Notes under the pieces: generated by a model
What the model was told of the DNA's origin: nothing
Database searches by the model: none
Seen by the model: the letters and a program-made list of their open reading frames with translations, nothing else
Part shown: positions 43,709 through 46,952 of the stretch, in pieces
Layout of the letters: the number at the start of each line of letters is the position of its first letter
How positions within the stretch are numbered: the stretch's first letter is position 1
Position numbers and translations under genes: made by a program
Origin: Escherichia virus TH54
Length of the DNA stretch: 64,000 bases
Sequence record: MT446420.1
Strand: one strand, 5' to 3'

Positions 43709-43740
43709 AGTTTCCTCATTTCAATGGCCCCGAAGGACCA

Positions 43741-43908
43741 TTATACTGTAGGTTTATCGTCTTTATTCTTACGCTTTTTTGATGGGATTTGTTCAGGGCC
43801 TTTATTGACAACTGCTCCGGAAGTGGTACCTGTTGCGATATTAGTTGGGTTTCCACCTGCATCACCGGCAACCATATCTTCGTTGATAAAATCTTTGAAT
43901 GTTTTCAT
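43741..43908 (-). CDS. hypothetical Lys-rich small protein (55 aa)
   Basis: Hand-translated MKTFKDFINEDMVAGDAGGNPTNIATGTTSGAVVNKGPEQIPSKKRKNKDDKPTV; TATAAATA 20 nt upstream. Confidence 0.35.
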   Translation of the reverse strand: MKTFKDFINEDMVAGDAGGNPTNIATGTTSGAVVNKGPEQIPSKKRKNKDDKPTV

Positions 43909-43924
43909 AACACCCCCTTTCCGC

Positions 43925-43932
43925 TATTTATA
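43925..43932 (-). promoter_or_regulatory. late promoter TATAAATA upstream of the 55-aa ORF and gene 61
   Basis: Minus-strand GTATAAATAGCGGAAAGGGGGTGTTATG. Confidence 0.4.
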
Positions 43933-44119
43933 CAACGAAGATAGCTTTATCACCATTTGCATCAGTCACTTCATAAGTGTCTTCATGATACAACGGAATA
44001 ATCCAGGTAACACCATCATCAGCGATAACATGGATTGCTTCTTGGTCTTGCGACACGATTTCATATTCTTCAAAAATCTGGAAGACCGAAATCTTAGAGC
44101 CCGTACACATTGCACTCAT
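43928..44119 (-). CDS. hypothetical protein
   Basis: 63-aa ORF, ATG confirmed. Confidence 0.35.
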   Translation of the reverse strand: MSAMCTGSKISVFQIFEEYEIVSQDQEAIHVIADDGVTWIIPLYHEDTYEVTDANGDKAIFVV

Positions 44120-44315
44120 ATTGTTCCCTTCTTTTAATCAATTGACGATGTGCCTTTTTAAGCTTACGAATCTGACGTTTAGTCGGTCGCGCAACGTAAG
44201 CTTGTGTAGTTACTCGTCCAAAAACACCATACTTAGGCGAAGGAGTATCAATAAAGACTTCCCACTGGCAAGAGTAACTATATATTGCTTTAGAGAATTG
44301 GGTCAAAACAAACAT
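44094..44315 (-). CDS. hypothetical protein
   Basis: 73-aa ORF. Confidence 0.35.
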   Translation of the reverse strand: MFVLTQFSKAIYSYSCQWEVFIDTPSPKYGVFGRVTTQAYVARPTKRQIRKLKKAHRQLIKRREQYECNVYGL

Positions 44316-44316
44316 A

Positions 44317-44676
44317 TTAACCTCGCTTCATGAAGGCATTAAAAATCTGGTCATCAATATCAGTAGGCAGTTCTTGAGCTTTAACCCAAGCCCCTTCCAG
44401 AATGTCATTTGCTTCAGTAGATATCATGACCCCAATTTCAGGGTTTCCGGTTATCCATGCTGCACAATCGCGTACATTCTTTTTATCAAATGGATAGCCA
44501 CGAGTATCTTCATAAGGTCCACTCATTACCATAAATGAGCGAGCCTTTATGATAACATCATCTTTAACGATAATATAACCAATCGCCTGATTAAACCGAG
44601 GCTCACGAAATTCATAACGGGCATTACCATTATTATTGCTCACCAGTTCAAAATTCAGAAAATTATAATAACTCAT
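44317..44676 (-). CDS. hypothetical protein, paralog of 44678..45118
   Basis: 119 aa; C-terminus TDIDDQIFNAFMKRG matches SVDDQIFNAFMKRD of neighbour; ~45-bp near-identical DNA at both 3' ends. Confidence 0.45.
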   Translation of the reverse strand: MSYYNFLNFELVSNNNGNARYEFREPRFNQAIGYIIVKDDVIIKARSFMVMSGPYEDTRGYPFDKKNVRDCAAWITGNPEIGVMISTEANDILEGAWVKAQELPTDIDDQIFNAFMKRG

Positions 44677-44677
44677 A

Positions 44678-45118
44678 TTAATCTCGCTTCATGAAGGCAT
44701 TAAAAATTTGGTCGTCAACTGAATATACAGGGGTTTCCAGAAGTTTCAAAAGACTGTTTTTAATGTACTTACCCGGGATACCCATATTAACAATACTGTC
44801 ATTCAATTCATTATCAGGGTTGATGTCTTTAAATTCAAACCCATCAAATTCAACCTTGTCAGGAATACCATCAGCGAAAAAATAAACCAATTGGTGCATT
44901 GTATTGCGCGAAAATAATTTAGACTTGACCGCAATAAGTTCTTGCCAATGGTTTAATTCTTTGTTAAGAAGTTTATGAGCAAACGTAATTCTATTATCAC
45001 TATCAACAAGAAAATAACCCAGGTATTGAATGGGTTCGTCGCTCCAAAACATCCTGTATGCTTGTGCATTTTGATTTTTACAACGAAGTTTTTTGATAAC
45101 TAAATTTCTGTTAATCAT
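44678..45118 (-). CDS. hypothetical protein, paralog of 44317..44676
   Basis: Track ORF 44678..45253 shortened to ATG 45118 (AGGTGA SD) = 146 aa, abutting the upstream gene. Confidence 0.45.
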   Translation of the reverse strand: MINRNLVIKKLRCKNQNAQAYRMFWSDEPIQYLGYFLVDSDNRITFAHKLLNKELNHWQELIAVKSKLFSRNTMHQLVYFFADGIPDKVEFDGFEFKDINPDNELNDSIVNMGIPGKYIKNSLLKLLETPVYSVDDQIFNAFMKRD

Positions 45119-45119
45119 T

Positions 45120-45413
45120 TTATTCACCTGTAACCCATTGAACAATCTTGCTGTTGTCAAATGAAGCATCGCAATACAGAACATAGTTATACTGCATAAC
45201 GTCACCAGAAGCCAGTTGGTCAGATACTTCTTTAACCATATCTGGGCGGTCACGTTTAGTAATATTCATGATATCAGCATAAATCTGATGTTCAACATCA
45301 GTCTGGTCAGCAGTCATAGACCACTCACAAAGGTCTTTATCAAGTCCAGCGGTTACAGGAGCTGTACCACATGATGCTACGGTAAGAATTGCCGCGATTA
45401 ATAACTTTTTCAT
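45120..45413 (-). CDS. exported protein with signal peptide/lipobox (Spackle-like candidate)
   Basis: 97 aa; MKKLLIAAILTVASCG...; same length as T4 Sp and carries a signal peptide, but Sp sequence was not verified. Confidence 0.45.
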   Translation of the reverse strand: MKKLLIAAILTVASCGTAPVTAGLDKDLCEWSMTADQTDVEHQIYADIMNITKRDRPDMVKEVSDQLASGDVMQYNYVLYCDASFDNSKIVQWVTGE

Positions 45414-45471
45414 TTCAATCTCCTCAGTAGTTGATAGGGATAATATACTGCATTATCCCTTTGTTGTACAC

Positions 45472-45813
45472 TTATTTTTCACCTTCAACTGAAAAACCGG
45501 TCAAGTTGTAATATTCAGCACGTGCAATATGAAGAGCTGCTTCAATATCAGTAAGGCAGATTTCTTCATTTAACAGTTGCGCTTCAACGGTCAAAATCAG
45601 ATTACGCAATGCGGTACCCTTACGCATGTCTACTTTATGAATTAGCTTGTCATCAACAAAAGCTTCAACAAGTGCATTATAGTTATCAGCAGTCTTCTGA
45701 ACATACCAGTGAATACCTGCGGGATGGAACATACTTGAGCGCTCAAAAGATGGAACGCCAACAGCACTCACTTTGATTGTTACTTTTACGCGGTCTTCTG
45801 GATTAAAAGCCAT
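45472..45813 (-). CDS. hypothetical protein, shares domain with 45814..46026
   Basis: 113 aa; NYNALVEAFVDDKLIHKVDM vs NNALVKAFVNDNKVFECDY. Confidence 0.4.
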   Translation of the reverse strand: MAFNPEDRVKVTIKVSAVGVPSFERSSMFHPAGIHWYVQKTADNYNALVEAFVDDKLIHKVDMRKGTALRNLILTVEAQLLNEEICLTDIEAALHIARAEYYNLTGFSVEGEK

Positions 45814-46026
45814 TTAGATTTCCTCAGATAAGTGGATACGATAATCACATTCAAAAACTTTATTGTCATTAACAAAGGCTTTCACCAGCGCATTATTCAC
45901 CTCTGCATACTGCACCGTAACCCATTCAATCATTTTTTGGTCACTAACATCCAGCGCGGTTTCTTTGGTAAACATATTACCATTTTCAAACCAACCAATA
46001 AACACTACGTTCTCTAATTTATACAT
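45814..46026 (-). CDS. hypothetical protein
   Basis: 70-aa ORF. Confidence 0.4.
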   Translation of the reverse strand: MYKLENVVFIGWFENGNMFTKETALDVSDQKMIEWVTVQYAEVNNALVKAFVNDNKVFECDYRIHLSEEI

Positions 46027-46344
46027 TTAGATTTCCTCACAAAACGCCCAGTCTGCGTGATAAACTGTTGCGCCTTTAGTATCATTTAAACAAACCACGT
46101 CAACAGGTGCAATCACACGATAAAGACGGGGTTCTCCTCCATACGAGCGAGCTGCTCTTCCTGCATAGATACGCGCCAAACCAATATCTTCAGTAAAAAA
46201 CACACGCCCTAAATTTTTCTTACGCCCAACTTCTGACAGAACACCAGTTGCATCAGGAGGGCAAAGCATATTTTGGATTCCAGCATTAGAGCTTGAGCCA
46301 TGGTAATAAACTTTGTATTCTGCCTTGCAATCAATGGTTTTCAT
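46027..46344 (-). CDS. hypothetical protein with NAD-binding-like Y-H-G-S motif (possible mini ADP-ribosyltransferase fold)
   Basis: 105 aa; VYYHGSSSNAGI...GRVFFTEDIGLARIYAG resembles the beta1 HG[ST] and Tyr-containing strands of diphtheria-toxin/PARP-type ARTs; by-eye motif comparison only. Confidence 0.35.
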   Translation of the reverse strand: MKTIDCKAEYKVYYHGSSSNAGIQNMLCPPDATGVLSEVGRKKNLGRVFFTEDIGLARIYAGRAARSYGGEPRLYRVIAPVDVVCLNDTKGATVYHADWAFCEEI

Positions 46345-46403
46345 TTTATTCTCCAGTAGTTGATAGGTCTATAATAACACAACTAACGGAGAAGTAAACT
46401 GTT

Positions 46404-46781
46404 TTAGAGATGATTGCAATAAGCAGTCCATTCAACATGGACCTTTTCACCATTAAAATCAAAAGCGATAATACGAGCGGCTTCATCTACATACTTATAC
46501 ATGTGATGGAAACTAACAGGAATATATTCACCTTTTCGGCAAACCATGATTTTATCGCCTTTAAACAAGGCTAAGTCATCATAAATCTCTTTAAGGCCGA
46601 TGAAATCGATTTCACGACCACGTCTGCCTTCAATCTGGATAATAGCTTTACCTGGGTAAAAATCGTAGGCGATTGGTACATTAGCTCGTGGAGCCAGGAT
46701 AACGAATTCAATTGCATTTTCAGAGAATTCTACATTTACGGATTCAGTGATTGCTTTAACGATGGCTTGTGAAAAGTTCAT
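46404..46781 (-). CDS. hypothetical protein
   Basis: 125-aa ORF, first gene after the tandem early promoters. Confidence 0.4.
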   Translation of the reverse strand: MNFSQAIVKAITESVNVEFSENAIEFVILAPRANVPIAYDFYPGKAIIQIEGRRGREIDFIGLKEIYDDLALFKGDKIMVCRKGEYIPVSFHHMYKYVDEAARIIAFDFNGEKVHVEWTAYCNHL

Positions 46782-46820
46782 AATAATTTCCTCTTAGTGC
46801 GTATTTGATTTACAAGGTCC

Positions 46821-46921
46821 ATAGTACCACGCCCATGTGGTAGTGTAAACACTTATTGTAAGCGAATATCTTTAACCTTACCTACAGTTTCACAATTATC
46901 ATGCCTACAGGAGATGTAAAC
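46821..46921 (-). promoter_or_regulatory. two tandem early-type promoters driving the 41-61 island
   Basis: Minus-strand GTTTAC ... GATAAT (46921-46895, short spacer) and GTTTAC-N18-TACTAT (46850-46821), after the gp41 terminator. Confidence 0.45.
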
Positions 46922-46936
46922 CCCTAAAAACAAAAA

Positions 46937-46952
46937 AGGAGCCAAAGCTCCT
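46937..46952 (-). terminator. intrinsic terminator after gene 41
   Basis: Minus-strand AGGAGC-TTTG-GCTCCT then TTTTTTG. Confidence 0.5.

Follow-up and report, generated by a model that had tools for sequence, protein, structure and literature searches.

Ten small genes between helicase gene 41 and primase gene 61 of Escherichia virus TH54 very probably represent a Gaprivervirus-like version of the known T-even accessory cluster

Are the ten small genes that separate the replicative helicase gene 41 from the primase gene 61 in Escherichia virus TH54 a novel insertion, or a variant of an arrangement that T-even phages are known to have? The question arises from a 64,000-nucleotide stretch of sequence record MT446420.1, referred to here as the window, for which a sequence-only reading had taken it that in T4 gene 61 directly follows gene 41 and the accessory genes 61.1-61.5 lie downstream of 61, and had consequently regarded the placement in the window as unusual. 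The T4 reference record contradicts this order, as it runs 56, dam, 61 (17935-18963), then 61.1, 61.2, sp, 61.4 and dmd (18966-20553), and finally 41 (20612-22039). Since T4 itself has five small genes between 61 and 41, the same layout as in the window, the placement anomaly does not exist. The ten open reading frames (ORFs) are instead very likely to be a Gaprivervirus-like form of the early accessory cluster that T-even phages conserve between 41 and 61, the 'anti-TA (toxin-antitoxin) island', and as judged from sequence the block is the expanded form of the cluster typical of non-T4 Tevenvirinae. The analysis is thus of value mainly as a correction: what looked anomalous is the standard T-even layout known from textbooks, and there is no case for pursuing it as a new insertion. 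The ten ORFs lie on the minus strand at 43741-46781, where the sequence-only reading had placed them, and together with the two boundary genes comprise the following features (lengths in amino acids, aa).

46952-48391, minus strand: gene 41, replicative helicase, bounding the cluster upstream; 64% identity to T4 gp41 over 478 aa
46404-46781, minus strand: ORF10, RB69ORF041c-like, 125 aa; 36% identity to the JS09 homologue
46027-46344, minus strand: ORF9, 'HGS' protein of the RB69ORF040c family, 105 aa; 85% identity to the JS09 homologue
45814-46026, minus strand: ORF8, Dmd, antitoxin-like inhibitor of RnlA/LsoA toxins, 70 aa; 56% identity to T4 Dmd
45472-45813, minus strand: ORF7, Dmd-like core (residues ~15-64) with an unrelated 48-aa tail, 113 aa; 34% identity to T4 Dmd
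45120-45413, minus strand: ORF6, Spackle, 97 aa; 66% identity to T4 Sp
44678-45118, minus strand: ORF5, truncated AdfA (61.2)-like protein of the JS98 gp030 family, 146 aa; 85 phage records
44317-44676, minus strand: ORF4, RB32ORF033c family, 119 aa; AdfA C-terminal tail only
44094-44315, minus strand: ORF3, TifA (61.4) family, DUF7279, 73 aa; 39% identity to T4 61.4
43928-44119, minus strand: ORF2, RB69ORF033c-like, 63 aa; 65% identity to JS09_0150 in the same slot; phrog_3249
43741-43908, minus strand: ORF1, 61.1, 55 aa; 75% identity to T4 61.1; phrog_1823
42680-43708, minus strand: gene 61, primase, bounding the cluster downstream; 60% identity to T4 gp61

The membership of the block in the T-even cluster follows from both its position and its content. 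First, it is located between 41 and 61 on the same strand as both. Next, ORF1, ORF6 and ORF8 are orthologues of 61.1, sp and dmd and keep their T4 order, while ORF3 belongs to the 61.4/TifA family and ORF4 and ORF5 carry the tail of 61.2/AdfA. Finally, small accessory genes are present between 41 and 61 in all of the relatives examined, with the annotated counts being ten in SP18, 212, PSD2001, ABTNLsp5 (a Dhakavirus) and the RB69-type phage JS09, where imm and imm.1 are included, and five in T4. Largely, then, the ORFs are orthologues of T4 61.1-61.5 in an order conserved in the relatives, an outcome that the sequence-only reading itself had named as speaking against its proposal. That accessory genes were inserted or transposed into a 41-61 junction contiguous in T4, giving a lineage-specific novel cassette, can hardly be entertained any longer: apart from the gene order assumed for T4 it can draw only on the ten ORFs of the window compared to the five of T4, whereas the T4 record and the ten-gene intervals of the other five phages contradict it, and for each of the ten ORFs a homologue lies between 41 and 61 in T4 or in RB69-type, Dhakavirus or Gaprivervirus phages.

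The ten ORFs are real genes and most of them are under purifying selection, because all have an ATG start, a TAA stop and a ribosome-binding site of the GAGG/GGAG/AAGG type, and their differences from relatives are mostly synonymous. Compared to TH57, the synonymous and non-synonymous codon differences number 11 and 0 in ORF9, 14 and 0 in sp, and 15 and 1 in ORF7, and ORF3 differs from its PSD2001 counterpart by 13 synonymous and no non-synonymous codons; overall, synonymous changes far outnumber non-synonymous ones in ORF1, ORF3, ORF5, ORF7 and ORF9. Unlike its neighbours, ORF4 shows seven synonymous and eight non-synonymous differences from SP18, counts which are too small to test, and the pattern may reflect relaxed or diversifying selection.

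Three of the assignments to T4 families exceed curated profile thresholds. ORF3 scores 72.2 bits against DUF7279 (cutoff 24.5), nearly the same as the 72.7 bits of T4 TifA, and carries the central basic motif RPTKRQIR (RPTKRQIRKLKK) common to TifA. ORF6, which had been singled out earlier as an exported protein of 97 aa, turns out to be Spackle, as it matches the Pfam family T4_Spackle (PF25676) with 147.8 bits over residues 1-96 and begins with the hydrophobic, export-signal-like N-terminus MKKLLIAAILTVASCG. Spackle is an established periplasmic superinfection-exclusion protein, which is reflected in its Pfam and PHROG names. ORF8 reaches 72.3 bits against the Pfam Dmd family (PF17587; cutoff 27). 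Nothing meaningful was retrieved for any of the ten ORFs in NCBIfam and PADLOC scans, and for ORF1, ORF2 and ORF10 profile scans of Pfam, PHROG, NCBIfam and PADLOC gave no functional match.

The role of such genes in T4 is largely on record. Srikant et al. (eLife 2022) have shown inhibition of ToxN by T4 61.4 (tifA), have pointed to RnlA as the target inhibited by dmd and to DarTG as the system countered by 61.2 (adfA), and have termed the T4 41-61 region a probable 'anti-TA island' (PMC9391042). The suggestion of the sequence-only reading that the block serves superinfection exclusion or anti-defence is supported by homology to these characterised T4 genes, but it is not new, since the island is already in the literature (PMC9391042); the anti-defence and superinfection-exclusion role of the cluster is already known. 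The following working of the cluster would be expected by homology. Right after infection, the host sigma-70 RNA polymerase would initiate transcription inside the block, at several early promoters of the GTTTAC type. The small proteins would then each disarm one function of the host or of a competitor, in most cases by binding to it directly: RNase toxins of the RnlA/LsoA type would be bound by Dmd (ORF8) and perhaps by the paralogous ORF7, the TifA-family ORF3 would bind a ToxN-type RNase, DarT-like or other toxins are plausible targets of ORF4 and ORF5 with their AdfA tail, Spackle (ORF6) would be exported to the periplasm and block the tail lysozyme gp5 of superinfecting phages, and ORF9 would probably use NAD+ to modify a host target. 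Finally, as sequence comparison shows, recombination at short conserved junctions, namely the promoter/stem-loop cassettes and probably the AdfA-tail junction, reshuffles the gene content between phages.

Several points weigh against this assignment of functions. All of the activities are deduced from homology at 34-66% identity, TifA homologues vary in their ability to inhibit ToxN (PMC9391042), and AdfA, which acts by binding DarT, has homologues that differ in specificity (PMC11257639). Neither ORF4 nor ORF5 matches the full-length AdfA profile (~210 aa) above the gathering score: ORF4 reaches 21.5 bits against Pfam AdfA (PF23813), below the cutoff of 27 and over residues 103-119 only, which are its last 17, and ORF5 has no Pfam AdfA match; both proteins are without the N-terminal ~95 aa of AdfA. 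The histidine of the INHIAS motif (H165 in T4, H168 in JS09), whose correspondence to the DarT1-specificity position of RB69 R164H is approximate, is replaced by glycine in ORF5 and methionine in ORF4, although this stretch is weakly aligned. ORF7 scores 19.1 bits against the Pfam Dmd family, below its cutoff of 27, and for this reason it is called only 'Dmd-like'. Also, the number of promoter-like sites, 24 compared to 15.6 ± 3.8 in shuffled sequences, represents a modest enrichment.

Despite the lack of a profile match, ORF5 matches the C-terminal half of T4 61.2 along 88 aa at 32% identity, and the tail DDQIFNAFM(K/N)R(G/D), in the form DDQIFNAFMKR in ORF5, is invariant and common to ORF4, ORF5 and AdfA. 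ORF4 is represented in 332 phage records, ~300 of them at less than 60% identity; as listed, these mainly lie at ~44-49% and come from phages of the Tequatrovirus type, for example RB14 and ime09. ORF4 and ORF5 had been described as a paralog pair, as had ORF7 and ORF8. The former two share their C-terminal 27 aa at 52% identity and the latter two a 31-aa stretch at 42% identity, with nothing in common beyond these segments, so the relationships hold only as distant, domain-level ones. The end of each AdfA-tail gene coincides with a repeat at the nucleotide level:

44313-44357 and 44674-44718: direct repeat of 45 nucleotides (nt) at gene junctions, covering the AdfA-tail codons, the stop codon and the ATG of the next gene; the copies are 93% identical

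The two copies sit at the 3' ends of ORF4 and ORF5, and the same junction is kept at the nucleotide level at the T4 61.2/61.1 boundary. Because it is both repeated in the window and conserved in T4, the AdfA-tail junction is likely another recombination site, where short homology could allow for duplication or shuffling.

The Dmd-like core of ORF7 was recognized by similarity to T4 Dmd (E = 1e-5) and, at E = 0.055, to the PDB entry 5hy3_B. The gene is restricted to Gaprivervirus, where it occurs in 15 phage records and is missing in SP18. Its C-terminal tail was also considered as possibly TifA-like, an idea which was rejected as BLAST gave no support. Two tandem Dmd-family genes (4754-4948 and 4949-5152) are likewise present in the Dhakavirus ABTNLsp5, one of them annotated as a 'translational repressor protein', and for this reason duplication of Dmd appears to recur independently in the 41-61 island. 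The 5' two-thirds of dmd in the window (45877-45996) are ~97% identical to ABTNLsp5 within more divergent sequence, which suggests a second, shorter mosaic segment besides the one described next.

The longer segment concerns ORF10. In comparisons with TH57, PSD2001, 212 and SP18, homology ends at 46382/46383 and resumes at 46909/46910 (at 46952 in TH57), and the gap is occupied by 33 base pairs (bp) in TH57 and by two different ORFs in SP18, 212 and PSD2001. The ~660 bp at 46342-47000, which span the 3' end of gene 41, its terminator, the promoters, ORF10 and the next promoter, are ~98% identical to the Dhakavirus Salmonella phage vB_SalM_ABTNLsp5, compared to 70-80% in the flanks. This difference in identity indicates that ORF10 is a cassette exchanged between genera, in what would be a recent transfer. 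Both breakpoints (46382 and 46910) fall within early-promoter cassettes, and the swap makes a clean example of inter-genus cassette exchange at such sites and a modest lead. The ORF10 family itself is tiny, with five clusters among 5.8 billion proteins. Its structure model is confident in the C-terminal half only, which is predicted to form a small beta-barrel of the SH3/Tudor type; the barrel matches hundreds of Tudor/SH3-like domains, and therefore no function can be drawn from it. A sequence search of the PDB with ORF10 gave nothing.

The exchange of ORF10 bears on another explanation, according to which the block is a hyperplastic region whose ORFans are largely dispensable or neutral and are carried along by the promoter/stem-loop cassettes, with real roles for sp and dmd only and no part of the other eight in defence evasion. 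The indel or replacement at ORF10 among near-identical phages, the absence of ORF7 from SP18 and the lack of functional matches for ORF1, ORF2 and ORF10 are in line with it, as is the finding that deletion of adfA in T4 gives no DarTG1 phenotype (PMC11257639). However, synonymous changes are in large excess in five of the ORFs, ORF9 retains 60-70% identity between coliphages and the phages of Aeromonas and Acinetobacter, and counter-defence activity has been demonstrated for TifA (PMC9391042) and for RB69 AdfA(R164H) (PMC11257639), all of which makes a neutral block quite improbable. A Gaprivervirus-like anti-TA island is the preferred reading, and its widely conserved, uncharacterised member ORF9 is treated below.

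ORF9 has homologues in 609 phage records, from Escherichia, Klebsiella, Acinetobacter, Aeromonas and Vibrio phages, at 60-100% identity, and in three genera it adjoins dmd directly upstream. No homologue is present in the 41-61 cluster of T4, and for this reason ORF9 has been overlooked by T4-centred genetics. Residues H15, G16, F49, T51, D53, Y60 and R63 are invariant in the family and E103 is at least 90% conserved. Structurally, ORF9 is a minimal ADP-ribosyltransferase (ART) fold of the Arr/Tpt1 type, with the RNA 2'-phosphotransferase Tpt1/KptA and the rifampin ADP-ribosyltransferase Arr as its closest matches and the anti-CRISPR ART AcrF11 as the third best. Direct sequence searches of the PDB with ORF9 and with its family profile gave nothing, ORF9 itself has no Pfam match, and two of 34 family members reach E = 0.084 against the Arr profile (PF12120). 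A profile search of 1.84 billion representatives retrieved 244 relatives, many of which hold the domain as a ~95-aa module in proteins of 270-3900 aa, and several relatives found at E = 1e-25 to 1e-29 with the ORF9 profile pass the Pfam Arr-ms family over the same stretch with 27-31 bits (cutoff 25). With these bridging domains included, the top PDB match of the profile is Arr (2HW2, 9IAF), at just E = 0.04, and Arr emerged in the PDB sequence search solely after their addition. In the bridged alignment, H15-G16-S17 of ORF9 pair with H19-G20-T21 of Arr, and F49 pairs with Y49. Two features count against a catalytic Arr-like enzyme. The catalytic residues of Arr are presumably H-Y-(D/E), whereas ORF9 has an invariant phenylalanine at the position of the tyrosine, and the catalytic acidic residue of Arr falls outside the aligned stretch. 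ORF9 also differs from Arr in size, being 105 aa long (96-97 aa in some phages) compared to 143 aa.

Companion domains of the ORF9-like module include ART-PolyVal, NUDIX, lambda-type portal and 2H-phosphoesterase/Acb1-like domains. The module is found both in fusions and in giants of 1900-3900 aa, and these have the look of polyvalent conflict proteins encoded by phages or conjugative elements.

Two proposals for the role of this fold can be set side by side. By analogy with AcrF11, it is tentatively suggested, with considerable doubt, that ORF9 is the smallest natural ART known (~95-105 aa) and an enzymatic counter-defence factor that would ADP-ribosylate a host toxin, defence protein or nucleic acid, so that most non-T4 Tevenvirinae would have such an enzyme in their anti-TA island; ORF9 may then be the stand-alone form of the Arr-like module of the giant polyvalent phage and conjugative-element proteins. 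Alternatively, ORF9 might be a host-takeover ART acting on the transcription or translation machinery or on RNA, akin to T4 Alt, ModA and ModB, or a dead NAD-binding decoy, which we consider possible rather than likely. The closeness to Tpt1 and Arr, the invariant tyrosine-to-phenylalanine change and the occurrence of the domain in giant proteins with NUDIX, 2H-phosphoesterase/Acb1-like and portal modules are consistent with takeover or a decoy, whereas the place of ORF9 in the anti-TA island, immediately upstream of dmd in three genera, and the similarity to AcrF11 speak for counter-defence. No characterisation of RB69ORF040c, RB69ORF041c or RB69ORF033c, or of a Tevenvirinae counter-defence ART, was found in the literature searched, and the very widely conserved mini-ART gene therefore represents an uncharacterised, if modest, lead.

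The regulatory signals of the cluster are the following.

46936-46953, minus strand: intrinsic terminator hairpin after gene 41, a 7-bp GC-rich stem with TTTTTTGTTTTT, then a T run
46893-46920, minus strand: doubtful first early-type promoter, GTTTACA (46920-46915) followed by GATAAT/ATAATT; spacer of 14-16 nt
46821-46849, minus strand: early-type promoter upstream of ORF10, TTTACA-17-TACTAT, TG-extended
46343-46398, minus strand: early promoter and stem-loop cassette upstream of ORF9, TTTACT-16-TATTAT with TG at 46398-46371
45436-45470, minus strand: promoter overlapping a 10-bp stem-loop upstream of sp, TGTACA-17-TATATT at 45470-45442

The terminator, which had been noticed earlier, is predicted to fold at -10.9 kcal/mol (z = -3.2), with the gene 41 stop overlapping the hairpin. 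Two tandem promoters had been proposed to follow it, and of these one is a clear site (46849-46821), whereas the other, with its 14-16 nt spacer, was not called by the consensus scan and was read directly off the sequence; the Gaprivervirus breakpoint 46909/46910 lies inside it. The promoter cassettes proposed near 45421-45470 and 46348-46402 are indeed present as GTTTAC...TAnnAT sites at 45470-45442 and 46398-46371. The ORF9 cassette folds at -15.7 kcal/mol (z = -3.2), and the ORF10 swap has its left breakpoint (46382/46383) in the spacer of this cassette; the sp cassette folds at -11.4 kcal/mol (z = -3.0), and a 23-nt repeat is common to the two. In alignments, the window promoters correspond to those that T4 has upstream of dmd and sp, the sp cassette matching the latter. 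An Rfam scan of 42200-47100 gave no RNA family.

As for the phage itself, a megablast search with 41700-48500 matched 675 phage records, and since the best matches are the Gaprivervirus-type coliphages TH57, PSD2001, 212 and SP18, at 95-97% nucleotide identity, the window is assigned to a T-even phage of the SP18/VR7 group (Gaprivervirus-like). Further genes on either side of the cluster are these.

48710-49888, minus strand: uvsX
48376-48720, minus strand: gene 40
41771-42307, minus strand: gene 56, dCTPase; 69% identity to its T4 counterpart

The interval between 61 and 56 is without a minus-strand gene, as had been claimed, with no such ORF of at least 30 aa in 42308-42679. It holds a hydrophobic plus-strand ORF (42344-42571) of 75 aa, or 65 aa from an internal ATG, with 46% identity to RB69ORF029w (JS09_0153), which is found in the same place, whereas in T4 the gap is filled by dam. 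No homologue of the T4 Dam methyltransferase was detected by tblastn across the whole window, so that a relocation of dam to elsewhere in these 64 kb was rejected. A homologue of imm (superinfection immunity) is present at 50631-50870, outside the 41-61 cluster, while in RB69-type phages imm is inside it.

The closest known systems can now be compared with the window directly. The borders of the ORF10 cassette resemble the promoter-early/stem-loop (PeSL) cassettes of the hyperplastic regions of T4-type phages, defined in RB49/phi1, PST and nt-1 (Arbiol 2010, PMC2839356; Comeau 2014, PMC4122927). In both cases sigma-70-like early promoters and stem-loops are found at the borders of variable cassettes, with the breakpoints of indels or replacements inside them; the likeness is a functional one.

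In the T4 cluster, the flanking genes, the strand, the transcription direction and the relative order of dmd, sp and 61.1 are the same as in the window, early-type promoters likewise precede sp and the genes on the dmd side, and T4 Spackle, Dmd, TifA and 61.1 all have homologues in the window. However, the window has ten genes as opposed to five, the full-length AdfA is replaced by two truncated AdfA-tail proteins, and the TifA-family gene lies on the 61 side of sp, while that of T4 adjoins dmd; the T4 61.4 slot is occupied by the Dmd-like ORF7, and ORF2, ORF9 and ORF10 are absent from T4's cluster. The relocated TifA-family gene, the two truncated AdfA-tail proteins and the second Dmd-like gene thus offer natural variants of known counter-defence genes for studies of specificity.

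In the RB69/Mosigvirus interval the order is ORF041c, ORF040c, dmd, 61.4, imm.1, imm, sp, 61.2, ORF033c and 61.1, and ORF10, ORF9, dmd, sp, ORF2 and 61.1 of the window occupy matching slots in the same order, with a small opposite-strand ORF similar to RB69ORF029w also shared between 61 and 56. In contrast to RB69-type phages, the window cluster is without imm and imm.1, the imm homologue being placed elsewhere, AdfA is full length in the RB69 type, and ORF10 is only 36% identical to its RB69-type counterpart.

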